A stretch of DNA of 63,725 nucleotides, the filler included, from Gemmatimonadota bacterium (GTDB taxonomy: Bacteria > 4572-55 > J002), in the NCBI GenBank assembly GCA_003697105.1. It is 3 parts of 3 records of this genome, joined end to end, with 100 filler letters (N's around TTAATTAATTAA, not from the genome) between each part and the next. Parts side by side here need not be neighbours in the genome. Positions count along the whole stretch, not along the records: positions 26,626 to 50,717 come from RFFQ01000047.1; 2 more parts are not named here. One strand, 5' to 3'. Numbering within the stretch: the first letter of the stretch is position 1; every line of letters starts with the position of its first letter. A program made the position numbers and the translations under genes. Shown piece after piece: positions 34,111-50,817 of the stretch. The notes under the pieces are model-generated. The model saw only the letters and a list, made by a program, of their open reading frames with translations. It was not told the origin of the DNA and did not search any database.

Positions 34111-34848
34111 ATGGGAAAACCATATGATATACTGATTATAGATGACGAAGAGGTGGTGGTCAATGCCACTATTAAAATTATGAGCCTCGAAGGGTTCACG
34201 GTGGATAGCGCCTTGGATGCCAAAACCGGTTTGGAAAAATTGGCAACACAGCAATATCGTCTTCTACTTACCGATTTAATGTTGCCCGATATGTCCGGCT
34301 ATGAAGTTATCACGTACATGAAAGCAAAGGGAATACAAATTCCGATCATTCTGATTACCGGTTATGCGACACTCGATAATGCGGTTAAAGCCATGAAAAT
34401 GGGGATTTTTGATTTTATTCCCAAACCCTTTGAAATTGAGGAACTGCTAGGTGTAACCCTGAGAGCCTGGCGCGTTCAAGCGGACGATATCCCTGCTGAC
34501 CCACCGTGTCCCTCGCGGCGCTATTTGGGCAAACATGCTTGGGTAGATATCGATTCCGACGGTAGGGCGCATATCGGTGCTGCGGCACTCTTCCGAAAAA
34601 CCGTAGGTACGATCAACCATATTCATTTCCCGGCAAGGGGTCAGGAGGTAAAACAAGGCGGGCAGTGTTTAAAATTCCAAACGGATGATACCTATCAGCA
34701 TACCCTTTGGTCACCGCTCAGTGGTATCGTGATCGAGACAAATCATACGATTCAACAGCACCCCACTCGCCTAAAAGATGAAAATCCGTGGCTGGTTCAG
34801 CTTCTTCCCAGTAACATGGATGCTGAAATTAAACATTTGACGTTATGA
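34111..34848 (+). CDS. Response regulator receiver fused to a GcvH-like domain
   Basis: IIDDE, TDLMLP, ITG and KPF; C-terminal HAWV...G.A.IG...SPLSG.V.E.N...W. Confidence 0.85.
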   Translation: MGKPYDILIIDDEEVVVNATIKIMSLEGFTVDSALDAKTGLEKLATQQYRLLLTDLMLPDMSGYEVITYMKAKGIQIPIILITGYATLDNAVKAMKMGIFDFIPKPFEIEELLGVTLRAWRVQADDIPADPPCPSRRYLGKHAWVDIDSDGRAHIGAAALFRKTVGTINHIHFPARGQEVKQGGQCLKFQTDDTYQHTLWSPLSGIVIETNHTIQQHPTRLKDENPWLVQLLPSNMDAEIKHLTL

Positions 34849-34905
34849 CCTGCATCATTGGGATTCATTTATATATACTACATTTTAGTCGTCATGGAGG
34901 CTATC

Positions 34906-36030
34906 ATGGTTGCCCTAATTGTCATTTTATGTATCGTCGCTTTTATCACGGCGGATGTGCTCATCCGAGTGATACTGCAACGCCTCGCTGAAGCTAAATT
35001 ACGCAAAGAGCGACAAGCGGCGTTGGAAACCGGTCTCCGCTTGGATTTTGCCGATGAAGCAAAAACACTGAAACGAGTGGAGGTGACCAACCCCAAAGCG
35101 AAAATTTTAGCAGTAGATGATGAAGAGGTTGTCCTCTCCAGTTTTCGGAAGATTCTAGTGCTTGCCGGATATTCTATTGATACTGTGGAAACCGGTCAGG
35201 AAGCTTTGATGCTGGTTCAACATCATGATTACGATTTCGTCTTCACCGACCTCAAAATGCCAGAGATGGATGGCGTCGAGGTGGTCAAGGGGGTCAAACA
35301 CCTCCGCCCAGACATCGATGTGATCGTCATTACGGGCTACGCCACCATTGAAACCGCCGTCGAAACAATGAAATATGGCGCAATGGACTACGTCCAGAAA
35401 CCTTTCACCGAAGATGAATTGGTCGATTTTGTCAATAAGACCTACATCCGGCGCCAAGACCGGTTGGAACGGCAAATCAAACCGAAAATCCATTTAGTGA
35501 CACCTACCAGCGGTGAATCTCCTGACAAACACACCTTTAATGTCCCCGCCGGTATTTTCATCGCTCCCGAACATACTTGGGTCAGCATCCAGCTCAACGG
35601 GATGGCCCGCGTAGGGCTTGATGATTTTGCACAAAAAATCATCGGTGAAATTGATGACGTGAAACTCCCGAAAATCGATCAAGTTGTGAAGAAGGGAGAA
35701 CCCCTGTTTACGATCAAACACCTTTCTAACTCGATTCAATTTTTTGCCCCGATTAGCGGAAAAGTAACCGCTATCAATACAGAATTGATAAGTGATATTG
35801 ATGCCATCAAATACAAGCCGTACGCCGAGGGGTGGATTTGTAACATCGAACCGGAACGGCTAACCGAAGAATTGCCTTCCCTGAAAATTGGTGCAGATGC
35901 GCTCGCGTGGTATCAACAGGAAGTCGATACGTATATCGATTTAGTCAAAAAAATCAGTGATCCGGATGCGTTTTGGACCACAATTTCCAAAATGTTTTTT
36001 CAGCCAAAAACGGAGTCGGGAAAGGAGTGA
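34906..36030 (+). CDS. Membrane-anchored response regulator receiver fused to a GcvH-like domain
   Basis: N-terminal TM; VDDE, TDLKMP, KPF; HTWV...RVGLDDFAQ...APISGKVTAIN...PYAEGWI; GGAGG RBS. Confidence 0.88.
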   Translation: MVALIVILCIVAFITADVLIRVILQRLAEAKLRKERQAALETGLRLDFADEAKTLKRVEVTNPKAKILAVDDEEVVLSSFRKILVLAGYSIDTVETGQEALMLVQHHDYDFVFTDLKMPEMDGVEVVKGVKHLRPDIDVIVITGYATIETAVETMKYGAMDYVQKPFTEDELVDFVNKTYIRRQDRLERQIKPKIHLVTPTSGESPDKHTFNVPAGIFIAPEHTWVSIQLNGMARVGLDDFAQKIIGEIDDVKLPKIDQVVKKGEPLFTIKHLSNSIQFFAPISGKVTAINTELISDIDAIKYKPYAEGWICNIEPERLTEELPSLKIGADALAWYQQEVDTYIDLVKKISDPDAFWTTISKMFFQPKTESGKE

Positions 36031-36035
36031 GGTAA

Positions 36036-36833
36036 ATGCACCCCCAAAGTAATAGCGAGGGTTACGCCATTTTAACCGACCTGACCAAGTGTATCGGCTG
36101 CGAAGCGTGTGTACAAGCTTGCAAAACGATCAACGAACTACCACCGGCAGAACATCCTTCTAAACTATCTGCGACCACCTGGACATACATTGATCGTCGG
36201 GAGGGTGTGAACATCCGCCGGCAGTGCCTGCACTGTCTTGATCCGGCCTGTGCCTCTGTCTGTCCGGTGGCGGCATTACATAAAACTGAGACTGGGGCGG
36301 TGATATACGATTTCAACCGGTGTATCGGATGCCGCTACTGTCTGTTAGCCTGTCCGTTTGAAATTCCCAAATATGAGTGGGATAAAGCGTTGCCGCGGGT
36401 GCAAAAGTGCATCCTTTGCTATGAAAAACGGGTATCCAAAGGCGAAGAACCGGCATGTACCGCCATCTGTCCCACCGGGGCGACCCTTTTCGGCAAACGT
36501 AACGAACTTCTCGATGTTGCTCGCCAACGGATCAAAGATCATCCTGAAATATACGTGAATCATATCTACGGTGTGGCAGAAGCGGGCGGCACATCCGTGC
36601 TGTACCTCTCTGATGTACCCTTCGAGCAGTTAGGGTTTAAAACCGCGCAAACCACCCCCTACCCCCAACTAACATGGAATATCTTACGCCATATCCCCAC
36701 CGTCGTTAGTGTGGGGGGTGTCGGTATGTTGGGCACCTGGTGGATTATCCATCGACGGATGCTGATCGAAAAGGTCAATAACGGCGAACTCTCCGAGGAA
36801 GAAGCTTTCGGAAAGCGAGGTGAAACCCCATGA
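36036..36833 (+). CDS. 4x[4Fe-4S] electron-transfer subunit (HybA/HmcB-like) with C-terminal TM anchor
   Basis: CIGCEACVQAC, CLHCLDPACASVCP, CIGCRYCLLACP, CILC...PACTAICP; YG..EAGGTSVLY. Confidence 0.92.
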   Translation: MHPQSNSEGYAILTDLTKCIGCEACVQACKTINELPPAEHPSKLSATTWTYIDRREGVNIRRQCLHCLDPACASVCPVAALHKTETGAVIYDFNRCIGCRYCLLACPFEIPKYEWDKALPRVQKCILCYEKRVSKGEEPACTAICPTGATLFGKRNELLDVARQRIKDHPEIYVNHIYGVAEAGGTSVLYLSDVPFEQLGFKTAQTTPYPQLTWNILRHIPTVVSVGGVGMLGTWWIIHRRMLIEKVNNGELSEEEAFGKRGETP

Positions 36834-38374
36834 AGATAAAAATTACCTTTTGGCGGGTTATCGCTCTGCTGATTTTACTTGCTGGATTGTACGCTACTTT
36901 TCTGCGCTTCACGCGCGGTTTGGGGGCGGTAACGAACCTTTCGGATCAATTCCCGTGGGGCTTATGGATTGGTTTTGATGTATTGGTCGGGGTGGGGTTA
37001 GCCGCCGGGGGGTTCACGATTGCCGCTATCGTTCATATTTTCAATATCGAAACATACGAGTCGATTAGTCGCCCCACCTTATTGACGGCGTTTTTGGGCT
37101 ATTTGTTGGTTGCAACTGCTATTATGTTCGATATTGGGCAACCGCATCGAATTTGGCATCCAATCATCATGTGGAATCCGCATTCCGTGATGTTTGAAGT
37201 CGCGTGGTGTGTCACCCTTTATCTGACCGTCCTGGCACTGGAATTTAGCCCGATTGTCTTTGAAAAATTCAATCTCAACGTTCCGCTGAAAGTGATGCGA
37301 ACCATTTATTTGCCGTTGGTTATTTTAGGAGTATTGCTTTCCATGCTCCACCAATCCTCACTCGGTACCGTATATGTGATTGTCCCGGATAAACTCTACG
37401 GGTTGTGGTATTCGCCGATGTTGCCGATTTTCTTCTTTATTTCAGCCATCTCGGTGGGACTCGCAATGACGATCTTTGAGTCATTCCTTAGTTACCGTGC
37501 CTTTGGTAAACGCCTCGAATTAAATATCCTAGTGGGGTTAGCACGGGTGTTAGTGGTTATCTTAGCCGTTTACCTGATCCTCAAGTTTCAGGATTTACGC
37601 TTACGGGGCAATCTACCGCTTGTCTTTCAACTCACTGAGGAAAGTGTTCTCTTTTGGGGTGAGATCGGCTTAGGCGTGTTCTTACCGATGATCCTGTTGT
37701 TTATTCCCCAAGTACGAGTAAAACGGGCAGGCTTATTTTTCTCCGCACTATTGGTGATAATGGGCTTCATCCTGAATCGACTCAACGTGAGCATTACCGG
37801 CATGTTACACAATGAAACATACTTTCCCAAATGGACTGAAGTCGCCATCACCCTAAGTTTTGTCACGGTTGGTTTCATCGTATTTGCTTTAGCGGTGAAA
37901 TATCTGGATATTTTCCCAACGGAAGAAATCGACCCGCATAATCCCCCGCCACTGGAACAGATAGGGCTTTCGGGTCGCGTCATTCTAGGCATGTGGGGAG
38001 TCGTGCTCGCTGGATTTATCATCTATGGTCTGGCTAAAGATAACCGGCTCGAACACCCGGTTGAAGCTGCCGCCATTGAACGCAAAACCGACCCGCTGCG
38101 TGAACTCGAATTTACTAATTTGCCAGCAGACATCGTCTATGACAAAAGTGATATGGGAACTGTGACATTCAGTCATGAGACACATCTATTGTTGGTAGAT
38201 AACCCCCAGTGCCAGCCATGCCACCCCAAGTTGTATGACTATAACATTACCCCCAAACAGCAGACCCCGCTGGTGGGTGACGTTATGCACGAATCTCAAT
38301 CCTGCGGGCACTGCCATAACGGTACGATGGCGTTCAGCATCGAGGAAGAATGTACGCTATGTCATGTAGAGTAA
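36830..38374 (+). CDS. NrfD/HybB/HmcC-like quinone-reactive membrane subunit fused to a C-terminal triheme c7-like domain
   Basis: TNLSDQFPWGLWIGFD, GLAAGGF, LHQSSLG; C-terminal FSHETH with CQPCH, CGHCH, CTLCH. Confidence 0.9.
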   Translation: MKIKITFWRVIALLILLAGLYATFLRFTRGLGAVTNLSDQFPWGLWIGFDVLVGVGLAAGGFTIAAIVHIFNIETYESISRPTLLTAFLGYLLVATAIMFDIGQPHRIWHPIIMWNPHSVMFEVAWCVTLYLTVLALEFSPIVFEKFNLNVPLKVMRTIYLPLVILGVLLSMLHQSSLGTVYVIVPDKLYGLWYSPMLPIFFFISAISVGLAMTIFESFLSYRAFGKRLELNILVGLARVLVVILAVYLILKFQDLRLRGNLPLVFQLTEESVLFWGEIGLGVFLPMILLFIPQVRVKRAGLFFSALLVIMGFILNRLNVSITGMLHNETYFPKWTEVAITLSFVTVGFIVFALAVKYLDIFPTEEIDPHNPPPLEQIGLSGRVILGMWGVVLAGFIIYGLAKDNRLEHPVEAAAIERKTDPLRELEFTNLPADIVYDKSDMGTVTFSHETHLLLVDNPQCQPCHPKLYDYNITPKQQTPLVGDVMHESQSCGHCHNGTMAFSIEEECTLCHVE

Positions 38375-38476
38375 TCGATATAAATATATTTATGTAACAT
38401 GATGATATTAAAAATGTTAATACGTGTAACACACCAACATCAAAACCTGTTTTGGATGATTTCTAATCAAAAAACC

Positions 38477-38505
38477 TTGACTTTAACGAGTTCATGATAT
38501 ATTAT
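38477..38505 (+). promoter_or_regulatory. Sigma70-type promoter for the Sec-cytochrome/rhodanese/porin operon
   Basis: TTGACT-N17-TATTAT, about 200 nt upstream of ATG 38712. Confidence 0.65.
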
Positions 38506-38711
38506 TCAAGCAATAAGCGGAGTTGAAACTCCACTAATTGGAGTGTCAATTTAAGTAGGGTGTGTCGTTCATTTATCCGGCTTTATAATACCTTGTATGC
38601 CACACCATCCCTACTTGAAGATTGTTACGTTCTAGACCGGTCTTTTCCTGCGTTGAACGGTACCTTCAACGTGTTACGTTCTCTCATTTTTCATGTTAAG
38701 GAAGGTGAGTC

Positions 38712-40061
38712 ATGATCTTTAAACGTACGATTTTGTTCGTGGCTGTGATGGCATTAACCCTGTTCATCTGGCTTTCCGGATGTACGGATAAGTATCCTAC
38801 GGAAGAGGAAAAACAAGATCAGGTCGCGATGTCCAGTTGTACGACGTGCCACTTGAATGAAACGGTGCTCAAGGAGTTCGTTGGTAGTGATTTAGTACCT
38901 CCTCCCGGTTCTGGCGAAGGCTGAGGTGGTTCAGTGTCGGGGGTCCCGGCATGGAAGACAATTTTTGTGAATGCTGACTTTTTGGAAACCGTGCATGGCA
39001 GTATGGCGTGTGAAGACTGTCACGCCGGTAATCCAAAGAGCTTCACTCTGGAAGGCGCCCACGAAGGGCTGATCGCCCTGCCCAGTGAAAATGCCGTGGC
39101 GAGTTGCGGTGGCTGTCACGCTGATGTGACCGAGAAGTTTGCCACCAGCTTGCATTATAACCAAGAAGGTTATTTTCACTGGTTTGAGGAACGAGCCGGT
39201 TACGACCTGGCAAGTGATGCCCACAAATTACAGGAATTTGGCGCAGAATGCGGTAGCTGCCATACCTCCTGCGGGGATTGCCATATCGGACGTCCCAAAT
39301 CGAATGGCGGCGGGTTAGGCAATGGCGGCCATCTGTTTCAGGGGACGCCAAGCATGACCGACAACTGTACCGCCTGCCACGGCTCACGCGTGGGTGAAGA
39401 GTACACCGGTGCGCATACCAGTCAAGGCATTAAAGCGGATGTGCATTACATCCCCAATGCCAAACGGTGCGAATTCTGCCACAGCGGGGCGGAAATGCAC
39501 GGTGACGGCAATATCTATGTGGATCGCTATGATGCGGATATGGTACATGCCGTTAAGTGCGAGGATTGCCATGAGTCAGCGCGTAATGCCAACTTTTACC
39601 ACACCGTGCACTGGGCAGGTGGAGAGTCCAGTGGTAATAAGTTGCAATGCCAGGTTTGCCATTCCCAGTCCTACAAGAACTGTAACGGCTGCCATGTGGG
39701 TGGCGATGGTATCACTGGTTCATCCTATCTGACCTTTGAAATTGGTCGGAATTATATGAAGAGTGAACGCCATGATTTTGATTACATGGTAGTTCGCCAT
39801 ATCCCAATTGCACCGGATACCTACGCCGAATGGGGGGAATCGGATTTAGCCAACTATACGGCACATCCCACGTGGAAGCTCGCTACACCGCATAATATCC
39901 AGCGGTGGACCGAACAAACCACGGTTGAAGAAGGCGAATCCTGCGGCAGTTCCTGCCATGATAGTGACATTTATCTGCGCGAAAGTGACATCGAGCTGTA
40001 TAACGCCAGCGGTTACGAAGAACTGGAACGCATCGCCAACCAACCGGTGTTTATGGATTAG
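38712..40061 (+). CDS. Multiheme cytochrome c lipoprotein with in-frame UGA (candidate selenocysteine, GEG-U-GG); 449 aa if read through
   Basis: ORFs 38712-38924 and 38934-40061 are in the same frame, separated only by TGA 38922-38924. Lipobox LSGC and 1 CxxCH lie upstream; 9 CxxCH and 1 Cx3CH lie downstream; the downstream ORF has no signal peptide of its own. Confidence 0.8.
38930..38956 (+). promoter_or_regulatory. Candidate bacterial SECIS hairpin
   Basis: TTCAGTGTCGGG-GGT-CCCGGCATGGAA: 12-position stem with one mismatch and a G-initiated apical loop about 17 nt after the UGA. Confidence 0.7.
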
Positions 40062-40068
40062 TTTACCC

Positions 40069-40104
40069 GACCTCGCGGGAACGCCTTTCGCGAGGTCTAT
40101 TTTA
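40069..40104 (+). terminator. Hairpin after the Sec-cytochrome gene (terminator or stabiliser)
   Basis: GACCTCGCG...CGCGAGGTC followed by a T-rich tract. Confidence 0.55.
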
Positions 40105-40189
40105 TTTATCTTTATCATTATACGGTGCTACCTAATTTCATTTCGTTTAACCATATATTTATTTATATCTAATATTTTAGGAGGTTTTC

Positions 40190-41227
40190 ATGTTGTCCAA
40201 AAAATTATTTCTGGTGCTAATATTAACGTTTACGCTAAGCATGTTTATGTTGGGGTGTGATGATGATGACAATGGGAGTGGCGATACCGTCGATGAAACG
40301 GCACTGCTGTTAGCCGCCGGTGATGCCTATTTTGGTAGCTACCTGACCACTGCTGGGGAAAGCCCCAACATCTCCATCACAGAACTCTACGGGTTGCTCA
40401 CGGATACCGATACCACAAATGATCCGTATCTTCTGGATTTTCGTTCGGAAAGCGATTTTAACGCGGGGCATATCAACGGGGCGGTGCACATGTCTTTGTC
40501 AGAATTACCGGACGCCGTGGATACATTGCCGACAGACAAAACGATTGTTACGATCTGCTATATGGGGCAAACCGCCAGCCACGCGGCGGCATTTATCAAT
40601 TTGATTGCCCAAGACCCAGACTATTCCGGCTTACATGCGCGTAATTTACTGTTTGGGATGAGTGCGGTCGGTACGCCATCCGGACCGTACATCCAGAATT
40701 GGGTCAATACCATTGCCACGGATGAATGGGTTGATCAATTGGAGACCACTCCCCACACCGCAACCCAAACCTATGATCTGCCGACCATCAATACGGGGGA
40801 AAACACCCTGGCAGAAATTCTGAAAGCACGTTGGACGGAATATCTGACAAGCAATGGGAATTGGGCAAACCTGACCAACACCGCAGACGTTTTTGTAAAC
40901 AATAGTAATTATTTTATTATCAACTATTGGCCCCAAAGTGAGTATGAAAATCCGGGACACATTCCAGGTGCCTATTGCTTTCCACCCAAAACGTCAATCC
41001 AATCGGATGCGGATCTGAACAAACTGCCATTGGATCAAGACATTATTGTTTATTGCTACACAGGACAAACATCTGCCCAATTAGCGGCATATCTGCGGTT
41101 ATTGGGCTACAAAGCCTGGAGTCTGGCATGGGGCGTCAATGGGTTTGCCTATCATGCCTTAGATGGCATTGGGCACCAATACAGTCCTCCGGTAGATGAC
41201 CATTCTGCCATTTTGTGGACACCTTAA
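40190..41227 (+). CDS. Tandem-rhodanese lipoprotein (sulfur/selenium transferase-like)
   Basis: Lipobox MLGC-DDDD; two rhodanese domains with GHINGA/CYMGQTA and GHIPGA/CYTGQTS active-site loops. Confidence 0.9.
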   Translation: MLSKKLFLVLILTFTLSMFMLGCDDDDNGSGDTVDETALLLAAGDAYFGSYLTTAGESPNISITELYGLLTDTDTTNDPYLLDFRSESDFNAGHINGAVHMSLSELPDAVDTLPTDKTIVTICYMGQTASHAAAFINLIAQDPDYSGLHARNLLFGMSAVGTPSGPYIQNWVNTIATDEWVDQLETTPHTATQTYDLPTINTGENTLAEILKARWTEYLTSNGNWANLTNTADVFVNNSNYFIINYWPQSEYENPGHIPGAYCFPPKTSIQSDADLNKLPLDQDIIVYCYTGQTSAQLAAYLRLLGYKAWSLAWGVNGFAYHALDGIGHQYSPPVDDHSAILWTP

Positions 41228-41245
41228 CCGTTTCATTTCGCAACT

Positions 41246-41279
41246 CCGGGGTCTGGATACCCCCAGACTCCGGTTTTTT
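41246..41279 (+). terminator. Intrinsic terminator-like hairpin between the rhodanese and porin genes
   Basis: CCGGGGTCTGG...CCAGACTCCGG-TTTTTT. Confidence 0.7.
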
Positions 41280-41293
41280 CAAGGCGGTGAATC

Positions 41294-42496
41294 ATGATGA
41301 AAAAGATTATCAGTTTGATATGCCTGTTGTTGATAGTTGGTCTTTGGACTCAAGGCTGGAGCCAAACGTGGGAAACACGCGGGAAACTTACGACTGCGAT
41401 TTACGCGTTTGAAGATTCGATTCAGCACCAGCGGGTTTACGAAACTGTACGGTTTGAAGCAAAACATGACAAATTCCGGTTTAACTTTGCCGGACGTGCC
41501 ATGATGGATATGAATTCCGACGATGAAACCGACGATGAGCGGTTGCTCAAGGCGCACAGTGCCTCTATTTCGGGGGATGGGCTGTTCAATGGTCTGTTGG
41601 ATTTCACGGTGGGACGGCAGTTTTTGCACCCCGGCTTGGTGTTTGGCAGTCTGGATGGGGTGAATCTGGTTTGGCATCCCATGGAAAAGTTGGATTGGCA
41701 GATGTACGGTGGGGTAGAAAGCCACCTCTACCGGAGCTTTAAAATCTACAACAGTGATGATGCCACCGTTTACGGAACTGCCCTGCGCTACCGTGATGTG
41801 TTCAACTCCACCATTCAATTGGTCTATTTCAATAAAAGTACCGCGGATGAAACCCAATGGGAAATCGCCGGAGTGAATCTCAATAATCGCTCTCTGTCGT
41901 GGTTGAATCTCTCATTGCAAGCCCATAACGATCTGGTCAATGAGCGCCTACACCGGTTGTACGGGCAAGTCCGTCTCATCCCCTCAGAGCGCTACAATCT
42001 GGTTTTCCGGTACAAACAGCAATACCCGCAAGTTTACGGGGATTCATTCTTTAAAATTTTTGATATTAAACAATATGAGCAACTGAGTTTTGGCGCAAAT
42101 TACTTTATCACCGCTAAATACGCGCTCATGGCGGATTATCAGATGGTCAGTTTAGCTGATGGGGAAGGCAATGCCAATCGATTGTATATCACCCTTAGTG
42201 ATTTGAACGGGTCAATCGGGTTCATCTATGAAAGCGGGGATTTGGGTGATGAAACGGGATTTTTGTTTGATTATGGCTATGATGTCACGGAGAAGTTAAC
42301 CGTATCCGCGAGTGTGGACTTCTCGCGGTATCGTCTGGAAGAGGTTTATGATTACGAACGCCAAGTTGGAAATGCGTTTAAGCTGGCGTATAAATTCAGC
42401 AACAATCTGCGGGCAGATGTCGAATATCAATTTTTGAACAATTATGTGAAATACGAAGACCATCGACTTTTAGCTCACATCCATTTTATGTGGTAA
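41294..42496 (+). CDS. Outer-membrane beta-barrel (porin-like) protein
   Basis: Signal peptide; alternating aromatic-rich beta strands; GRQF and LDG motifs; C-terminal aromatic residue (HIHFMW); next to multiheme cytochromes. Confidence 0.75.
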   Translation: MMKKIISLICLLLIVGLWTQGWSQTWETRGKLTTAIYAFEDSIQHQRVYETVRFEAKHDKFRFNFAGRAMMDMNSDDETDDERLLKAHSASISGDGLFNGLLDFTVGRQFLHPGLVFGSLDGVNLVWHPMEKLDWQMYGGVESHLYRSFKIYNSDDATVYGTALRYRDVFNSTIQLVYFNKSTADETQWEIAGVNLNNRSLSWLNLSLQAHNDLVNERLHRLYGQVRLIPSERYNLVFRYKQQYPQVYGDSFFKIFDIKQYEQLSFGANYFITAKYALMADYQMVSLADGEGNANRLYITLSDLNGSIGFIYESGDLGDETGFLFDYGYDVTEKLTVSASVDFSRYRLEEVYDYERQVGNAFKLAYKFSNNLRADVEYQFLNNYVKYEDHRLLAHIHFMW

Positions 42497-42509
42497 AGAA
42501 GGTGAACCC

Positions 42510-43376
42510 ATGAAAAAACTTATCTATCTTGGAATTTGTGTCCTTTGGGGGATGGGGAGTGTGGCTGCCGCTACCGAAGCCTCGTTTTCACATAAGCTCC
42601 ATACCGGCATGGGGTTAGGTTGTGAGACGTGTCATGATGCCGCCTTCACTAGCGAAACATCTGCAGATGATCTCATTCCCAATTTTGATGAGGTCTGCTT
42701 GATGTGCCATGAAGCCAGCGATATTGCAAAAACCCAATTTGAGCCTGTTGCCTTCAAAGCCGATTTCCCGCATAAGAGTCACGCCACCAGCGCAGAGGAT
42801 TGCATGACCTGCCACCAAGGAATTGACCAAAAAGAGGCGACAGATGGCACATATCATCTGCCAACAGGGCAAACGTGCAACGGTTGCCATGCCGGTGCCG
42901 ACGTTGCCGAGCAAAAAGATGATTGTTACCAATGCCATAATCTGGAGATGGTGCTGATGCCAGCAAATCACACTGTTGGTTGGAAAAATGGGCACGGTAT
43001 GACCGTCCACATGGAGACCGCGGCCTCCTGCGGACACTGCCATAATACCGAAACCTATTGCACCAATTGTCATCAGGGAGATAATCTGGATGCCACAGTT
43101 CATCCACTAAATTACCGCAAAACACACGGGATTCGTGCCAAAGGGAATCAGGATAATTGCCAAACGTGCCATCAGGAACAAGCCTTTTGTGTGGATTGTC
43201 ATCGCTCGGAAATGGTTATCCCCTCCAACCATACGTACGCTAACTGGGTTAGTGCTGAAGGTGGGCGTCATGCTAAATCGGCACAGTATGACCTCGATAG
43301 GTGTATGAGTTGCCATAACGATGCCTACACCGAATCCGTTTGTATGGGATGTCATGCCACACCATCAGAGGATTAA
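42510..43376 (+). CDS. Periplasmic 11-heme cytochrome c
   Basis: Signal peptide; 11 CxxCH counted; FSHKLH/FPHKSH c3/c7-like starts. Confidence 0.92.
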   Translation: MKKLIYLGICVLWGMGSVAAATEASFSHKLHTGMGLGCETCHDAAFTSETSADDLIPNFDEVCLMCHEASDIAKTQFEPVAFKADFPHKSHATSAEDCMTCHQGIDQKEATDGTYHLPTGQTCNGCHAGADVAEQKDDCYQCHNLEMVLMPANHTVGWKNGHGMTVHMETAASCGHCHNTETYCTNCHQGDNLDATVHPLNYRKTHGIRAKGNQDNCQTCHQEQAFCVDCHRSEMVIPSNHTYANWVSAEGGRHAKSAQYDLDRCMSCHNDAYTESVCMGCHATPSED

Positions 43377-43391
43377 GGAAATCATTCCATC

Positions 43392-45914
43392 ATGCGAAAT
43401 ACCCTGATTTTCTCCATAGGACTTCTTATATATTTCGCCGCATTGAGCTGGGCACAGGTGGATGATGACGAGTGCCTGATGTGCCATAGTGATGACAGTG
43501 ACCCGGCGCTGTACGTGGATGTAAATCAATTTATTGATACCGTACACGAGGGGTTTAGCTGTACGGATTGTCACAGCGATATTGAGGAAATTCCCCATGC
43601 TGAAGAGGTCGCCCCAGCAAATTGCGGTTTTTGCCATGACGACGTCGTAACGGCATTTCAGGAGAGTTATCACGGGCAGGTATTGGCACAAGGTGATAAA
43701 AACGCCCCGACCTGCGGCAGTTGCCATAATCATCACCGGATTCTACCGGCAAGCCATCTCAACGCCCCAACCCATCCCCTAAAAACGGGTGTGATGTGCG
43801 GGCAGTGCCATAAACAAGATGGTTCGGATTGGATTCATCGGGAGGCGAATACCGGTGGTAAGGTCAATTGTATTACTTGCCACACCGCCCATGAGGTACA
43901 ACCAGCAAGCCATCCGCAATCGACGATCAACAGCCGGAAAATGACCCAAACGTGCCGGAAGTGCCATACCCAATTGGAAGAACTCCATGCTGGGAAGGTT
44001 CGGGCGGAGGTCTTTCAACGTCCGGTGGATGAAATACCCGCCTGCACCACCTGTCACCAGCCCCATGCCAGCGCGAAATCAACGGATTTAGCAACTGAAA
44101 CCTGTTTGGCATGTCATGGCGAGGGGGCGGATTCTACGCTGTATGTCAACCATGAACAACTCAATGAATCCATTCATTGCAACTTTGATTGTATTGATTG
44201 CCACACGTCCATTACCACGTTGCCCCATGCTGAGAAGCTTCCAGATGCCGATTGTAGCTTTTGCCATGAGGATGCGGTCGCGGATTATGAGATCAGTATT
44301 CATGCAGAAGGACGCCGAGCCGGACTAGAAGCCGCAACATGTACCGATTGTCACGGAGCGCACGATATTCAAGCGTGCGAGGAGACCAGTGCCCAAGCCA
44401 ACCGGATGAATTTATCTGAAACATGTGGGCGTTGCCACTCCCGCCCGGAGGTCATCGCCCTTTTTCACCGGAAAGGTAGCGACCCCATTGAAAATTATAA
44501 ACAGGGCGTTCATGGTAAAAAACTGGCAGATGATCCTTCTGCCACCGTAGCTACCTGTATTGATTGTCATGGTAGCCATAAAATTTTGCCGTCAACGAAT
44601 CCGGAGTCATCATTTAACATTTTAAACATCTCGAAAACATGCGGGAAATGCCATAAAGAGGAAAGTGCTGAATATACGGAAAGTATCCACTGGGAGGCGC
44701 TCTCTTTCGGACATTATGAATCTCCAACGTGTAATGATTGTCATGGGGAGCACAATATTATTTCCCCGGAGGCAGAGTACGCGGTAACCCACCCGACACT
44801 GGTTTCCACAGAATTGTGCGCCAAGTGCCATTCCAACGAGCTGATCATGTCCCGGTTTGGGCTGGACCCTACCCGGTTTAATTCCTATATGAAAACGTAC
44901 CATGGTCTGGCGATTTTGAAAGGTTCACCGGATGCTGCCAACTGTACCAGTTGCCATGAAGTACATGCCATCCGGGCAGCGAGTGATACATTGTCCAGTG
45001 TGCATCCTCGTAATCTGAATGAAACGTGCGGGAAATGTCATGAGAATGTGACGGCCAATTTCACCCAAATTGAGATGCACCCCCGCGATCAAAAATCGCG
45101 GAATCCGGTCGCTTATCTGATTAAAATCATCTATTTCTGGCTGATTGGTCTGACCATCGGTGGAATGGTCCTTCATAATCTTATCATCTTTTTGTATTAC
45201 GTGGTGAATAAATGGCGTAAAGAACGGAGTCAACGACTGGTTCAACGGTTTCACCTAATTGATGTGATCAACCATTTACTGCTTATCGTGAGTTTTACCG
45301 TACTGGTGGTGACCGGCTTTGCGCTCAAATTTCCCGAAGATTTATGGGTAAAAGCACTGGTACTCCTGGGCTTGACCGAGCCGATCCGTGCATCATTACA
45401 CCGAATGGCGGCGGTGATCCTTGTGATCAGTGCCATCAGCCAAGCCCTCTATTTTATCCTGCACCCCAGAGGACGACACGATTTGCGGGCACTGCGCCCA
45501 ACGATTAATGATCTAACCGGATTCTTCAAAAACATGATGTACTACTTGCGCTTGCGCAAAGATAAACCCAAATTCGACCGGTACGATTATACCGAAAAAG
45601 CCGAATATCTAGCACTGATTTGGGGGACTGCTGTGATGGCAATCACCGGATTTATCCTCTGGTTTCCGGCAATTTTTATGGCATATCTGCCCAGTTGGGC
45701 GTTTGAAGTGAGTGAAGTCGTCCATTATTATGAAGCATGGTTGGCAACACTGGCGATCCTCATTTGGCACGGCTTTTTTGTCTTTCTACACCCCGAAAAA
45801 TATCCGTTAAGTTTAACGTGGATTGATGGCAAAATCACTGAAGACGAGTTTGAGCATCATCATGCCTTAGAAGCTGAGCGATTAAAAGCGAAAGAGACGA
45901 AAGAATCCGAATGA
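43392..45914 (+). CDS. 19-heme cytochrome c fused to a C-terminal cytochrome b (FdnI-type) membrane domain; CbcL-like architecture
   Basis: 19 CxxCH counted; C-terminal TM region with His ligands (INHLL, LHRMA, EKAEYLALIWG, VHYYEA..A...I..WH). Confidence 0.9.
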   Translation: MRNTLIFSIGLLIYFAALSWAQVDDDECLMCHSDDSDPALYVDVNQFIDTVHEGFSCTDCHSDIEEIPHAEEVAPANCGFCHDDVVTAFQESYHGQVLAQGDKNAPTCGSCHNHHRILPASHLNAPTHPLKTGVMCGQCHKQDGSDWIHREANTGGKVNCITCHTAHEVQPASHPQSTINSRKMTQTCRKCHTQLEELHAGKVRAEVFQRPVDEIPACTTCHQPHASAKSTDLATETCLACHGEGADSTLYVNHEQLNESIHCNFDCIDCHTSITTLPHAEKLPDADCSFCHEDAVADYEISIHAEGRRAGLEAATCTDCHGAHDIQACEETSAQANRMNLSETCGRCHSRPEVIALFHRKGSDPIENYKQGVHGKKLADDPSATVATCIDCHGSHKILPSTNPESSFNILNISKTCGKCHKEESAEYTESIHWEALSFGHYESPTCNDCHGEHNIISPEAEYAVTHPTLVSTELCAKCHSNELIMSRFGLDPTRFNSYMKTYHGLAILKGSPDAANCTSCHEVHAIRAASDTLSSVHPRNLNETCGKCHENVTANFTQIEMHPRDQKSRNPVAYLIKIIYFWLIGLTIGGMVLHNLIIFLYYVVNKWRKERSQRLVQRFHLIDVINHLLLIVSFTVLVVTGFALKFPEDLWVKALVLLGLTEPIRASLHRMAAVILVISAISQALYFILHPRGRHDLRALRPTINDLTGFFKNMMYYLRLRKDKPKFDRYDYTEKAEYLALIWGTAVMAITGFILWFPAIFMAYLPSWAFEVSEVVHYYEAWLATLAILIWHGFFVFLHPEKYPLSLTWIDGKITEDEFEHHHALEAERLKAKETKESE

Positions 45915-46416: not shown

Positions 46417-46492
46417 AGTTAAAGTGTACACAAATAAATGACTTAGTAAATTTTTATTATTATAAACTCTTTGAATAGGAAAGGTAGTGGGA

Positions 46493-48508
46493 ATGAGCGA
46501 AAAAAAAGTAAAGAAACCCCGCAACTGGAAAAAAATTGGGCTGATATCGGGTGCGGGGCTGGTGTTATTCGTGCTGTTGTTTGCCGGTTCGGTGCATTAT
46601 ACTTCTAAACCGTCGTTTTGCCGGACCTGCCATTACATGGAATCCTTTTATCAGAGTTGGAAAGAGTCTTCTCATAGCAATGTCACGTGTACAGATTGTC
46701 ACTATCCACCAGGACTAAAGTACAAACTTCGGGGCAAAATGGAAGGGTTAGTGCAAGTGGTCAAGTACACAACCCATGCCTACCGGAAATCCAAACCGTG
46801 GGCAGAAATCCCTGATGAAAGTTGTTTGCGTTCCGGCTGCCACCAGCGGCAGTTACTGGAAGGAAAGGGAGAAGAAGAGTTCAAAGGGGTTCATTTTAGC
46901 CATAAACCCCACCTAACCCAGCTCCGGCGCGGTAAAAAACTGCGTTGTACCAGTTGCCATTCCCAAATTGTTCAAGGATCACACATGGTGGTGACGGAAA
47001 ACACCTGTTTTGTCTGCCACTTTAAGAAAGGGGAAAAATACGAGGAACATAGTGAATGCCGGTTATGCCATACCGATGCGCGCATGTTGGCAAACTCGCA
47101 GGCAGGCACCCTCCGCTATGACCATACAATGGTCATCGAAAACAAAATGAACTGTCAGGAATGCCATAGCGAGACCATTTCCGGTGACGGCGCCGTACTT
47201 AAAGAACAATGTTTTGTCTGTCACTTTGAAAATGAACGGCTCGCCCGCTTTAACGATACGGATTTTCTACATAAAACCCACATCACCGACCACAAAGTTG
47301 AGTGTTTCCAATGCCATTTGCCGATTGAACATAAAATTTCCCACCGGGATATTGAGGCCGTGTCGGATTGTAAAACCTGCCATGAGCACACACACGTCCC
47401 TCAAAAAGATTTGCTAGCAGGTATTGGAGGAAAAGGTGTGGAATCCAAACCAAACCCGATGTTTGAAATCGGGTTGAATTGCCGGGGGTGTCATATTTTA
47501 CACGGATATTCCACTAACGAACTGGAAGAAGTCACCTACAAAGCCGATCCGCAAGCATGTGAGAAGTGTCATGGTAAAGGGTTCGGAAATTTGATGAAAC
47601 AATGGGAAACCATCACCGAAGCCAAAATCAACCGGTTAGAAAAATGGTACCAAACCGTTCGCACCAAGACCCGCACAGGGGATCGACAAACCGAGATCGA
47701 TGAACTTCTGGCGGCCGCTGAATTTAATATTGATCTAGTTAAGCAAGGCAAAAGTGTCCATAATGTGAGCTATGCCGACGCCCTGTTAAACACGGCGTAT
47801 GACAATATGAGCACCGCTTTGCAACTTGCCGGATCCACCTACCAATTACCGGCATCATTTAAGGAAACCTCCCAAAAAGTGCCATCAGATTGTGCCGCGT
47901 GCCATGCTAGTCTGCCAGTGAATGAGGTCAACATTTGGGGAATTTCATTCTCCCATGAGCGCCACGTGGTAAAACACGACTTACCCTGCCAAAAATGTCA
48001 CTCCAACATGAGACAGCACGGTGAATTGATTCTCAACCGGAAAAAGTGTTTGAATTGCCATCACCAAGAACAAAAGGAAAAAACTTGCAAGGATTGCCAT
48101 GAAGAAGCCGACGCCTTCTTCTACGGAACCACAACACTCGTCGCAGATGCGGAACCCGACCTGATGGCAGAGGTGCTGGACTGCTATTCTTGCCATTCTG
48201 GGAAAGGCGGTAAAATTGTTCGTCCCAGCGGGCAAACCTGTATCGATTGCCATGACGATGGATATGACGAACTGCTCGAAGAGTGGCAAGGGAACATCCA
48301 AACCCTATTGAGTGAAATCACAACACTGCGGAAACAGGTTAATGTGAAGGCGCTCAACGAATCACAGAAAAAACAATTAACCCGCATCGATCAGAAAATT
48401 GCGGCAGTAGATCAAGATGGAAGTTCCGGAATGCACAACTATTTTCTGATCGATTCCATGCTCACCCAAGTCAAGGAGGAATTGCAAGCATTACAACCCA
48501 GCAGCTAA
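46493..48508 (+). CDS. Membrane-anchored multiheme cytochrome c with NapC/NirT-like N-terminus (17 CxxCH + 1 Cx4CH)
   Basis: N-terminal TM; TSKPSFCRTCH.M...YQSWKESSH..VTCTDCH; motifs counted by eye. Confidence 0.9.
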   Translation: MSEKKVKKPRNWKKIGLISGAGLVLFVLLFAGSVHYTSKPSFCRTCHYMESFYQSWKESSHSNVTCTDCHYPPGLKYKLRGKMEGLVQVVKYTTHAYRKSKPWAEIPDESCLRSGCHQRQLLEGKGEEEFKGVHFSHKPHLTQLRRGKKLRCTSCHSQIVQGSHMVVTENTCFVCHFKKGEKYEEHSECRLCHTDARMLANSQAGTLRYDHTMVIENKMNCQECHSETISGDGAVLKEQCFVCHFENERLARFNDTDFLHKTHITDHKVECFQCHLPIEHKISHRDIEAVSDCKTCHEHTHVPQKDLLAGIGGKGVESKPNPMFEIGLNCRGCHILHGYSTNELEEVTYKADPQACEKCHGKGFGNLMKQWETITEAKINRLEKWYQTVRTKTRTGDRQTEIDELLAAAEFNIDLVKQGKSVHNVSYADALLNTAYDNMSTALQLAGSTYQLPASFKETSQKVPSDCAACHASLPVNEVNIWGISFSHERHVVKHDLPCQKCHSNMRQHGELILNRKKCLNCHHQEQKEKTCKDCHEEADAFFYGTTTLVADAEPDLMAEVLDCYSCHSGKGGKIVRPSGQTCIDCHDDGYDELLEEWQGNIQTLLSEITTLRKQVNVKALNESQKKQLTRIDQKIAAVDQDGSSGMHNYFLIDSMLTQVKEELQALQPSS

Positions 48509-48716: not shown

Positions 48717-49463
48717 ATGAAGCAATCGCTTATGAAATTGCCCGAACCTTTTATCCGGCTGTTACTTGTTTTTATTGTTTTTGTAGGTTTTACGGTAGTC
48801 ACCTGGGCATATGTCATCCCGCCATCCCTGAAGGATCGCGCCTACCATAAATCAACAACTATTGAACGCGAGATGGCAAAACCGATTTCCTATGCCGGCT
48901 CGAGTATCTGTTTTGATTGCCATGAAGACACGTATGACACAAAAAGATCGGGAGCCCATTTGAATCTCTCTTGCGAAACGTGTCATGGGCCTTCGTGGTT
49001 ACATTCAGAAGACCCCCTTGAAGTGACACCAGAAGTACCCCGCGACCGACAAGGTTGCGCCCGCTGTCATGAGTACGATACCGCCCGTCCAACGGGTTTT
49101 CCGCAGGTCAATGTGGCAGCGCACAATCCCGATGACCCATGCATTTCGTGCCACAACCCACATGATCCCGAACCATTAGTTACACCAGAAGAATGTGAAT
49201 CGTGCCATGCCGAAATTGCCCGAACCAAAGCCGTCTCTCCTCACTCCTCCCTTGAATGTGTGACCTGTCATGAAACGCCAGAAGCGCATAAAATTACCCC
49301 TCGGGTGGTTCGACCCTCTAAACCCAACGCCAGAAGCGCCTGCGGTCAGTGCCATGCAGAAAATGCCGAGAATCCCAAAGCCCCCAAAATTAACATAACC
49401 ACGCACGAAGAAAAATATGTGTGTTGGCAGTGTCACTATCCCCATATGCCGGAGGTGAACTAA
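48717..49463 (+). CDS. Membrane-anchored octaheme cytochrome c
   Basis: N-terminal TM; 8 CxxCH; AGGAGG RBS. Confidence 0.9.
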   Translation: MKQSLMKLPEPFIRLLLVFIVFVGFTVVTWAYVIPPSLKDRAYHKSTTIEREMAKPISYAGSSICFDCHEDTYDTKRSGAHLNLSCETCHGPSWLHSEDPLEVTPEVPRDRQGCARCHEYDTARPTGFPQVNVAAHNPDDPCISCHNPHDPEPLVTPEECESCHAEIARTKAVSPHSSLECVTCHETPEAHKITPRVVRPSKPNARSACGQCHAENAENPKAPKINITTHEEKYVCWQCHYPHMPEVN

Positions 49464-50200
49464 TGGATCGACGAAATTTTTTAGGAAAGTTTACCGCCAG
49501 TGTCATTGCGTCTGGCGGTATTATCGGATGGTTGTTAAGCGGCTCTAAAGCCAAAGCCGCAACGCCGGAAGGATACAACCCCCAAGACCATTACTACGGA
49601 ATGGGAATCAATATTGACCAGTGCATCGGCTGTGGGCAGTGCATGGAAGCCTGTCGCACAGAAAATCATGTACCGACTGATTTCTTCTGCCGAACATGGG
49701 TGGAACGGTACACCTTCAAAACCGATGGGGAAGTGCTGGTAGAGAACATCGCCCATAATCCCGAAGCGATCACCGAAAAAGATATTTTACGGAGTTTTTT
49801 CGTCCCCAAATTGTGTAATCAGTGTGAAAACGCTCCCTGTGTTCAGGTTTGCCCCGTAGAAGCCACTTTTAAAACAGAAGATGGCGTCATCCTTGTGGAT
49901 GAAAATCGCTGCATCGGCTGCCGTTATTGCGTCCAAGCGTGCCCATACGGTGCCCGTTATATTCATCCGGAGAAACATGTCGCTGATAAATGTACGTTCT
50001 GCTACCATCGGATAACAAAAGGGTTATTGCCCGCTTGTGTGGAAGTTTGCCCCACCCAAGCCCGTGTCTTTGGTGATATGAAAAAAGGTGCAAGTCCATT
50101 GGCTCGGTTACGCCGGATGTTTAAAACCCACGTGCTAAAACCGGGTTTGAATACACAACCCAAAGTTTTTTACGCCAATCTTGATGGAGAAGTCAGATGA
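49463..50200 (+). CDS. Tat-exported NrfC/DsrO-like 4x[4Fe-4S] protein
   Basis: MDRRNFL twin-arginine signal; CIGCGQCMEAC, CNQCENAPCVQVCP, CIGCRYCVQACP, KCTFC. Confidence 0.93.
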   Translation: MDRRNFLGKFTASVIASGGIIGWLLSGSKAKAATPEGYNPQDHYYGMGINIDQCIGCGQCMEACRTENHVPTDFFCRTWVERYTFKTDGEVLVENIAHNPEAITEKDILRSFFVPKLCNQCENAPCVQVCPVEATFKTEDGVILVDENRCIGCRYCVQACPYGARYIHPEKHVADKCTFCYHRITKGLLPACVEVCPTQARVFGDMKKGASPLARLRRMFKTHVLKPGLNTQPKVFYANLDGEVR

Positions 50201-50717
50201 ATCCAGCCCATACCGAAAAATTTGCCGAATTATTGAAGCAAGTCTCAGGGTATATCTATCCCAACGAGATTGAAATCTACTGGTCAGTTTTGATCGTGGT
50301 TTACCCCTTTGTCACAGGGCTTGTTGCCGGCGCATTCATCTTAGCCTCGTTAGTGAAAGTGTTTAACATTAAAGAAGTTCAACCCACGTATCGCCTCTCC
50401 TTACTGACCGCTCTGGCATTTTTACTGGTTGCCCCCTTACCGTTACTCATGCATTTGGGGCATCCGAGCCGGTTTTACGAAATTCTGCTAACCCCCAACC
50501 CCACATCTGCCATGGCAATGTTTGGCTTTGTTTACGCCTGGTATTTAATGGTCGTCCTACTCTTGGAAATCTGGTTCGTGTACCGTAAAGATATGGTCCG
50601 GTGGGCGGAAACCGCCAAATTCCCGCTCAATTGGGTTTACCGCGTGCTGACACTATTCTCCAAAGATACCTCGGAGAGCACCCTTGCCTTTGATCAAAAA
50701 GCCGTAAAAGTTATCAC
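50197..50717 (+). CDS. NrfD/PsrC-family membrane subunit (3' truncated by gap)
   Basis: WSVLIVVYPFVTGLVAG, HLGHPSRF, TSAMAMFG. Confidence 0.88.
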
Positions 50718-50817
50718 NNNNNNNNNNNNNNNNNNNNNNNNNNNNNNNNNNNNNNNNNNNNTTAATTAATTAANNNNNNNNNNNNNNNNNNNNNNNNNNN
50801 NNNNNNNNNNNNNNNNN
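50718..50817. other. Assembly spacer (Ns with TTAATTAATTAA linker)
   Basis: N44-TTAATTAATTAA-N44. Confidence 0.98.

Follow-up and report, generated by a model that had tools for sequence, protein, structure and literature searches.

In a 63,725-nucleotide stretch of DNA (the window) from a Gemmatimonadota bacterium (GCA_003697105.1), five co-oriented genes on the + strand at 38712-45914 encode a lipoprotein multihaem cytochrome with an in-frame TGA codon (SecCyt), a tandem-rhodanese lipoprotein (Rhod), a predicted outer-membrane β-barrel, an 11-haem periplasmic cytochrome (Hem11) and a multihaem cytochrome fused to a cytochrome b membrane domain (CytbMHC). All coordinates count along the whole window, and the cluster lies on its RFFQ01000047.1 part (26,626-50,717). 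Comparison with relatives made it close to certain that the TGA in SecCyt encodes selenocysteine (Sec). Judged from gene neighbourhoods, the conserved core of the system is the SecCyt/Rhod pair, which recurs across about ten phyla. By analogy with characterised enzymes, we propose that the cluster is a molybdenum-free, envelope-spanning reductase of sulfane sulfur (polysulfide, S0, thiosulfate, possibly tetrathionate), Ext-like in design but convergent with the Geobacter ext system, and we give this function an even chance of being right. The five co-oriented genes had been described in an earlier reading of the sequence alone (the sequence-only reading) and were all found on the + strand where it had placed them. 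It had also seen no molybdoenzyme or hydrogenase catalytic subunit, and none was found among the 29 window proteins scanned.

SecCyt (38712-40061, + strand) is a 449-aa protein with ten CXXCH haem motifs and one CX3CH motif, and its lipoprotein signal ends in LSGC. Only with read-through of the TGA at 38922-38924 does the frame stay open for all 449 codons, which places Sec at residue 71 in the motif GEG-U-GG. Relatives were collected in a scan of one genome per species that gave at least 570 matched stretches, and the 80 loci kept from it are the basis of all locus counts given here. The peptide similarity to these relatives ran on across the TGA. The aligned position held TGA in 66 of the 80 loci and a Cys codon in 12; the remaining two, L011 and L041, had neither, reading GEIRGG and ARGGDG there. 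The distribution of selB followed the same division. It scored above the curated cut-off in all five of the relatives' genomes with the TGA form and in none of the five with the Cys form.

A hairpin resembling a selenocysteine insertion sequence (SECIS), with an 8-bp stem and a GGU loop, starts 12 nucleotides after the TGA (38934-38952, + strand). In a 39-nt span of the window sequence it folded at -14.2 kcal/mol (z -2.11), and 6 of 200 shuffles folded equally well; folding a wider stretch of 70 nt about the TGA produced no signal (z 0.06). In an alignment of 67 sequences, 78.8% of the cells were paired, compared with 67.2% in shuffles, and seven of the eight pairs showed changes on both sides, that is, compensatory changes. 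None of 500 shuffles reached the observed values, and controls with slid partners were only 40-51% paired. A minority of the sequences carried the hairpin in a register shifted by three bases, which lowered the pairing count. The triloop of the family hairpin contains G/U. Rfam returned no family at E≤1 in 38350-39050, a region covering the leader and the SECIS-like hairpin, and no family at gathering score anywhere in the window.

The TGA could instead be a true stop between two genes, the first encoding a monohaem lipoprotein of 70 aa and the second, with its start at the GTG at 38934, a cytochrome of 375 aa. Gene callers do split the family in this way, and their calls shorten it at the TGA. 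Among the 120 homologues listed, the majority began just past the TGA and covered about 83% of the query, and many representatives started at profile position 74-77. Against this stand the frame and the similarity, which cross the TGA in 66 loci and meet Cys in its place in 12, the covarying hairpin downstream, and the tracking of the TGA type by selB. The 375-aa piece would also be left without a signal peptide. A true stop is accordingly very improbable in our judgement, and we treat SecCyt as a single selenoprotein. A side observation came from the metagenome protein P0006, a homologue in which the C-terminus runs on into the N-terminal module of a second copy. This module has the haem motif CLTCH, and the protein stops at GSGEG, which suggests that selenocytochrome genes in tandem were joined as far as the following TGA.

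The family is large. Representative clusters numbered 1891 at E≤0.001, 712 at 1e-10 and 214 at 1e-30, with the labels Calditrichota, KSB1, Krumholzibacteriota, Ignavibacteria, Bacteroidota, Chloroflexota, Phycisphaerae and others; the taxon names of the loci are deposited labels of metagenome-assembled genomes and may be wrong. The part of a 2026 selenoproteome review that was available lists ExtKL, the GSU2204 type and octahaem tetrathionate reductase (OTR) as cytochrome-type selenoprotein families, and SecCyt gave no match at E≤0.01 to models of the three catalogued families. We found no description of a SecCyt selenoprotein family in a literature search of incomplete coverage, which left supplementary data outside, including the homologue lists of PMC13510729 (its data S1/S2 list 637 homologues of MccSep). 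The cluster has an Ext-like design made of other proteins, and SecCyt appears to be an uncatalogued selenoprotein family.

In an alignment of 48 sequences, the lipid Cys, the Cys and His residues of the haem motifs (C411 in 46 of 48) and the Sec/Cys71-G-G element were invariant. There was no invariant free Cys besides Sec71 and the lipid Cys. Nine His residues outside the motifs were invariant and a tenth was kept in 42 of the 48 sequences. Set against 11 haem motifs, this would leave at least one haem without a conserved distal His, as would be expected of a catalytic haem.

The best structural and profile match of SecCyt was OTR of Shewanella oneidensis (1sp3). The family profile matched it at E 3e-8. 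An AlphaFold2 model of SecCyt, with a mean predicted local distance difference test (pLDDT) score of 85.9 and a predicted template modelling (pTM) score of 0.79, aligned with 1sp3 in VIA at Z 8.8, with a root-mean-square deviation of 4.2 Å over 258 residues; the next row scored 4.5. The aligned span covered model residues 92-449 and 1sp3 chain residues 1-427. Foldseek also ranked 1sp3 first for this model, with a weak E value of 0.039. OTR was reached by the family profile only, since a PDB search with the single SecCyt sequence gave nothing at E≤1, and the NCBIfam model of the OTR family (TIGR04315) did not match SecCyt at E≤0.01. OTR cleaves an S-S bond and carries eight haems, including a lysine-ligated catalytic haem, whereas SecCyt has 11 haem motifs. 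Unlike OTR, SecCyt is a lipoprotein with an N-terminal module of haem 1 and the Sec loop, and it has a rhodanese neighbour. From the profile and the model, we regard SecCyt as a remote OTR relative with three further haem motifs and this N-terminal module. Among the other representatives, P0275 carries three CWB2 cell-wall-binding repeats and P0177 a CarboxypepD_reg domain, which hints at cell-surface display in other lineages.

The partner gene, Rhod (40190-41227, + strand), encodes a 345-aa lipoprotein with the lipobox MLGC and two stretches matching the rhodanese domain (Pfam PF00581, E 1.1e-26). The active-site loop reads CYMGQT in the first domain (C123) and CYTGQT in the second (C289), and both rhodanese domains showed the motif C-[YF]-[TS]-G-[QH]-[TS]. 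Classical tandem rhodaneses keep only the C-terminal active-site Cys; here both were invariant in all 49 aligned neighbours. The lipid Cys of Rhod is followed by DDDD, and at least two acidic residues (D/E) stood within five residues after the lipid Cys in 26 of the 41 Rhod homologues with a recognisable lipobox. An acidic run at this place resembles the surface-export signal of Bacteroidota lipoproteins.

The association that the sequence-only reading had drawn between the genes was kept in other genomes. A rhodanese relative lay within 2.5 kb and on the same strand as SecCyt in 69 of the 80 loci, downstream in 60 and upstream in nine. In the remaining loci, one rhodanese was 5.3 kb off and ten loci had none, three of these being on contigs that end within 300 nucleotides. 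The unit of five parts fared less well as a whole: the SecCyt/Rhod pair was conserved across phyla, while the barrel was found in 16 of the 80 loci, the 11-haem gene in 14 and the multihaem cytochrome b gene in 11. Two of ten long family representatives scanned (P0188 and P0210) were cytochrome-rhodanese fusions, and such fusions are probably why some members bear the name 'thiosulfate/3-mercaptopyruvate sulfurtransferase'. In L011, one of the two loci that have lost Sec/Cys, no rhodanese was found within 5-8 kb, and the other, L041, gave a weak single-domain match only. Both of these loci keep the barrel and an 11-haem-type neighbour.

The membrane modules around the pair varied. In loci labelled Dehalococcoidia, the SecCyt/Rhod pair was followed by an HmcB-like iron-sulfur (FeS) protein and cytochrome b561, and in P0144 the cytochrome was fused directly to cytochrome b in a single protein. 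A constant SecCyt/Rhod pair with interchangeable quinol modules is the layout of a terminal reductase.

The barrel gene (41294-42496, + strand) encodes 400 aa that are predicted to form a signal helix and 22 strands (AlphaFold2 mean pLDDT 87.3), and the protein ends in an aromatic residue. Foldseek gave 329 matches at E≤0.001 and every listed row was an outer-membrane barrel, so that the β-barrel proposed from the sequence at 41294 was borne out by prediction. The protein had no Pfam or NCBIfam match at E≤0.01, MtrB/PioB included. In the ESM Atlas it met unnamed or 'porin family' clusters (Calditrichota, Thermodesulfobacteriota, Ignavibacteriota) that share no common Pfam family. Hem11 (42510-43376, + strand) is a 288-aa periplasmic cytochrome with 11 CXXCH motifs and no match to the DmsE/MtrA family at E≤0.01. 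A complex of the porin with the 11-haem protein, which the sequence-only reading had put forward for modelling, was predicted at an interaction prediction score from aligned errors (ipSAE) of 0.62 (0.63, 0.62 and 0.61 in separate runs), compared with 0.00 for the best of three controls. Of 80 solved complexes, 58 attained a score of 0.62, compared with 2 of 110 mismatched pairs. The runs shared at least 82% of their contacts, and the pLDDT of the partners was at least 70. The contacts joined lumen-facing residues of nearly all barrel strands to Hem11 residues 132-282. The model thus supports a Hem11 that threads through the barrel lumen, with its C-terminal half predicted inside the barrel.

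CytbMHC (43392-45914, + strand) has 840 aa, with 19 CXXCH motifs followed by a HydC/FdnI-type cytochrome b membrane domain. Ni_hydr_CYTB (PF01292) matched residues 620-802 at E 1.9e-13 and TIGR01583 matched at E 1.7e-12. A crude hydropathy scan picked out five hydrophobic segments instead of the usual six helices. By description, the protein fits the CbcL/MtrH/MtoC architecture, in which an N-terminus with multiple CXXCH motifs is fused to a HydC/FdnI-like cytochrome b. Members of that family have 3 to 23 CXXCH motifs in 416-1034 aa and have been reported in Calditrichaeota and Ignavibacteriae (PMC6295460).

Barrel homologues were found only beside SecCyt-type clusters, in loci that mainly bear the label Calditrichota or KSB1 and in a few cases another one, and the 11-haem gene adjoined the barrel gene in 14 of the 16 barrel loci; in the other two the contigs end within 300 nucleotides. 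All five genes stood together in 6 of the 80 loci (L002, L008, L009, L012, L018 and L019). On this distribution, the barrel/Hem11 pair is a lineage-specific add-on. It resembles MtrCAB of Shewanella (6r2q) and the Geobacter Pcc and Ext systems in having a barrel gene beside a periplasmic multihaem cytochrome predicted in the lumen, together with a lipoprotein cytochrome. Unlike the Mtr and Pcc systems, it has a 22-strand, 400-residue barrel outside MtrB/PioB, a Hem11 outside MtrA/DmsE, and a Sec lipoprotein with a rhodanese.

These likenesses raise the alternative that the cluster is a conduit for extracellular electron transfer of the MtrCAB or Pcc/Ext kind, in which SecCyt would be the terminal enzyme that reduces Fe(III)/Mn(IV) and the rhodanese would have an accessory role. 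The supported model of the barrel/Hem11 complex is in keeping with this, as is the CbcL-type inner-membrane module, the family of which is known from metal reducers (PMC6295460). Pfam matches to the MtrC/MtrF domain, which fell below the gathering cut-off (27 against 30 bits), also point that way, and P0275, having CWB2 domains, would be displayed at the surface. Folds like those of OTR and MccA are common to the Fe(III) reductases OcwA and OmhA, according to PMC10376724. The conserved unit, however, is the cytochrome with its rhodanese, and 64 of the 80 SecCyt-type loci lack the barrel. An invariant Sec/Cys and two rhodanese Cys residues would be superfluous for outer-sphere transfer to minerals, and Sec/Cys and the rhodanese are jointly absent in L011. 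We consider a metal conduit unlikely and prefer sulfane sulfur as the substrate.

The nearest counterpart in overall design was the Geobacter ext cluster. Its selenoprotein ExtKL is MccSep, a polysulfide reductase that is essential for S0 respiration and depends on an essential Sec (PMC13510729). MccSep is a 5-haem selenoprotein (PDB 9wt8/9wt9), the gene cluster of which also encodes a rhodanese and a porin, and it was described in 2026, from Desulfobacterota and Nitrospirota, as the first haem-selenocysteine polysulfide reductase (PMC13510729). Geobacter extHIJKLMNOPQS and the window cluster have in common a Sec-containing multihaem cytochrome, a rhodanese, an outer-membrane barrel, periplasmic cytochromes of 10-12 haems and a b-type module, and neither has a molybdoenzyme. 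Both selenoproteins carry Sec on a Gly-containing loop followed by a SECIS hairpin.

Homology between the two sets was not detected. The ExtKL model NF040886 (cut-off 250 bits) did not match SecCyt at E≤0.01, and it stayed below its cut-off in all five genomes carrying a window-type gene. Among 301 sampled genomes of the phylum to which genome G001 belongs, 33 exceeded the cut-off, and the best-scoring matches each contained one TGA. As an ext reference we used locus L095, the ExtKL of which matches PDB 9wt8/9wt9 at 894 bits. SecCyt aligned with this ExtKL at a BLASTP E value of 4.5 and a family hhalign probability of 4.9%, and the SecCyt family profile did not match 9wt8/9wt9 in the PDB at E≤1. 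Rhod met ExtH of L095 at a BLASTP E value of 0.35. For the barrel and ExtI of L095, BLASTP gave nothing at E≤10 and hhalign of the barrel family a probability of 0.8%. The sequence-only reading had called the system analogous to ext and possibly non-orthologous, in a lineage other than Geobacter. This agrees with the shared parts list and with the absence of detectable homology by hidden Markov model, hhalign, BLASTP and PDB profile, and with relatives in Calditrichota, KSB1 and other phyla; the components are not plain orthologues of a characterised complex.

The two selenoproteins also differ in their details. SecCyt has 11 haem motifs and MccSep five. Sec is residue 71 of 449 in SecCyt, in GEGUGG. 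In MccSep it is U325, in the motif DGUP, within an Ig-like domain at the C-terminus. The partner of Sec in MccSep is a Cys that ligates a haem, whereas SecCyt has no conserved partner Cys. SecCyt is a lipoprotein; MccSep is soluble and forms a tetramer in the periplasm. As membrane module, the window has a CbcL-type fusion and ext a Rieske protein with cytochrome b. SecCyt labels include Calditrichota, KSB1, Chloroflexota, Bacteroidota and others, and MccSep is from Desulfobacterota and Nitrospirota.

Reduction of selenite or tellurite was the first role proposed for the Geobacter ext cluster, and a metalloid oxyanion reductase serving respiration or detoxification, with the rhodanese carrying selenium, could be imagined here as well. 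MccSep also reduces selenite (PMC13510729). Loss of ExtI lowers selenite and tellurite reduction (PMC5877670), and the title of a paper cited there states that rhodaneses can carry selenium. MccSep, however, prefers polysulfide, with a sevenfold higher Vmax/K0.5 (PMC13510729), and homology of the window proteins to the Ext proteins was undetected. The SecCyt family is also very widespread (at least 570 matched stretches, and 214 clusters at E≤1e-30), which speaks for a common substrate rather than a trace metalloid. A metalloid substrate is quite unlikely in our estimation.

We favour a sulfane-sulfur reductase because of the relationship to OTR, the rhodanese partner and the MccSep precedent, the last of which strengthens a sulfur substrate by analogy only. 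The catalytic unit would be SecCyt with Rhod. The two invariant Cys residues of Rhod would bind sulfane sulfur in persulfide or polysulfide form. Sec71, on a glycine-rich loop next to the OTR-like haem core, would attack the Rhod-bound sulfur or free polysulfide, and the haem chain would then reduce the Se-S adduct and release sulfide. Electrons would pass from quinol to CytbMHC, across the periplasm and on to Hem11 threaded in the 22-strand barrel, which would put the reduction at the cell surface or close to it. Thiosulfate would fit equally well: the rhodanese would strip off its sulfane sulfur, leaving a persulfide for the cytochrome to reduce. What we infer from these comparisons is the substrate, the direction in which electrons flow, the surface location and the chemistry of Sec and of the rhodanese Cys residues.

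There are precedents for parts of this scheme. In the Sud/Psr system of Wolinella succinogenes, a rhodanese-type sulfur carrier feeds a polysulfide reductase. The thiosulfate reductase PhsABC consists of catalytic, FeS and cytochrome b subunits, and this three-part layout resembles the Dehalococcoidia-type loci, in which a rhodanese, SecCyt, an FeS protein and cytochrome b561 stand together. The catalytic subunit of both Sud/Psr and PhsABC is a molybdopterin enzyme, whereas here it would be a haem/Sec protein. The nearest lead in the literature is DealDRAFT_1917 of Dethiobacter alkaliphilus, a candidate member of the SecCyt family. PMC10376724 describes it as a multihaem protein 'misidentified as thiosulfate sulfurtransferase' that lies beside rhodanese genes and is up-regulated on thiosulfate.

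Several points weigh against the sulfane-sulfur reductase as we have drawn it. The substrate is assigned from the rhodanese partner and by analogy with OTR and MccSep. Nitrite and hydroxylamine are further substrates of OTR-family enzymes (PMC13510729), which makes a nitrogen substrate possible for SecCyt, and other substrates such as nitrite take up the remainder of the probability that we leave beside the alternatives set out here. The lack of a conserved partner Cys means that the chemistry must differ from that of MccSep. The Sec loop was modelled at moderate confidence only (pLDDT 60-72), and the fusion protein P0210 has Tyr at the Sec position. The score of the barrel/Hem11 complex may lean on its likeness to the solved MtrAB complex. 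Finally, terminator-like hairpins after the first and second genes leave co-transcription of the cluster unproven.

The electrons might also flow the other way. SecCyt and the rhodanese could oxidise thiosulfate, sulfide or external sulfur in the manner of TsdA/SoxAX and pass the electrons inward to quinone. Proteins of the CbcL/MtoC type occur in oxidisers and reducers alike, with no distinguishing feature (PMC6295460). Related cytochromes can run the tetrathionate/thiosulfate chemistry in either direction, and the authors of the MccSep study liken their own mechanism to the reverse of TsdA/SoxAX (PMC13510729). The origin of the DNA could fit an oxidiser too: the DNA was present in two hot-spring metagenome DNA runs from one study, which possibly represent the source sample, and no RNA run was listed as containing it. 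The nearest characterised relatives, however, OTR by fold and MccSep/Ext by architecture, are reductases. The adjoining HmcBC-like and NrfCD-like modules are typical of anaerobic reductive chains, and no Sox or Dsr gene was found among the 29 window proteins scanned. We regard the oxidative direction as improbable and keep to reduction of sulfane sulfur.

A narrower proposal, which we advance tentatively and as somewhat doubtful, is that the cluster represents a second, independently evolved haem-selenocysteine sulfur reductase, an 11-haem Sec lipoprotein derived from OTR, fed by a double-cysteine rhodanese and active on the cell surface, where a new 22-strand porin-cytochrome would deliver the electrons across both membranes. 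If this were true, the pair would be a major unrecognised molybdenum-free route of sulfur or thiosulfate respiration over about ten phyla. How bacteria without the polysulfide and thiosulfate molybdoenzymes respire sulfur had been an open question. Should the function hold, the family would point to convergence in the way Sec and haem are combined for S-S chemistry, and many uncultured lineages could be screened for sulfur respiration with it as a gene marker. Hundreds of shortened gene calls and some 'thiosulfate sulfurtransferase' labels would then be corrected.

Upstream of SecCyt, the best sigma-70-like match in the region lay at 38477-38505 (+ strand), with TTGACT and TATTAT separated by a 17-nt spacer and 10 of 12 positions matched. 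Such sites were not enriched, with 17 in the region compared with 13.9 ± 3.9 in shuffles. A leader of about 205 nucleotides (38506-38711, + strand) separates the promoter-like site from the start codon of SecCyt, and it contains an inverted repeat at 38516-38535, which the scan lists on the minus strand. Two terminator-like hairpins were predicted within the cluster on the + strand: one of 12 pairs with a T-rich tail at 40069-40097, between SecCyt and Rhod, and one of 11 pairs with a T-run at 41246-41273, between Rhod and the barrel gene. Through them, the catalytic pair and the conduit may be transcribed at different levels. The sequence-only reading had placed a single promoter before all five genes. 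The site itself was recovered as the best match, but the two internal hairpins and the unenriched site count do not sustain its being the only one. Promoter and terminator counts were not above those in shuffles, so the scan cannot settle the operon structure. A single transcript covering all five genes is plausible. No tRNA was found in the window.

Pfam/NCBIfam scans identified further genes on the + strand upstream of the cluster. A HAMP histidine kinase (32575-34086) is followed by two adjacent fusions of a response-regulator receiver with a glycine-cleavage-H-like (lipoyl-type) domain (RR-GcvH; 34111-34848 and 34858-36030). These have an unusual output domain and are possible sulfur-linked regulators. 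Relatives of the RR-GcvH fusions at 53-61% identity lay beside the cytochrome cluster in L003, L012 and L061. Next come an HmcB-like 4Fe-4S protein (36036-36833) and an HmcC/NrfD-like membrane protein with a C-terminal c7-type trihaem tail (36830-38374). In L003, RR-GcvH, HmcB and HmcC genes stood beside the cluster at 61-73% identity, the HmcB/HmcC pair at 66-73%. The HmcB/HmcC-like pair may be a second quinol entry point.

Downstream of CytbMHC, also on the + strand, the scans and motif counts showed a further respiratory set: an NrfH-like 17-haem cytochrome of 673 aa (46487-48508), an 8-haem cytochrome (48717-49463, by motif count), an NrfC-like FeS protein (49421-50200) and an NrfD-like protein (50197-50769), the frame of which runs into the N stretch near 50720-50770. 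Frequent neighbours in the 80 loci were a sigma-54 PAS activator (17 loci), a TPR protein (12), a LysR regulator (10) and a TetR regulator (6). A c554-like cytochrome with four CXXCH motifs is encoded on the - strand at 31667-32293, and a similar gene lay near 8 of 81 loci, the window included.

Elsewhere in the window are a SusC-like TonB receptor (17144-19447), a C25 (gingipain-type) peptidase of 1333 aa with a propeptide and a C-terminal Ig-like domain (22435-26436), and a resistance-nodulation-division (RND) pump. By their gene families, the receptor, the peptidase and the pump point to a diderm host of the Fibrobacteres-Chlorobi-Bacteroidetes (FCB) group.

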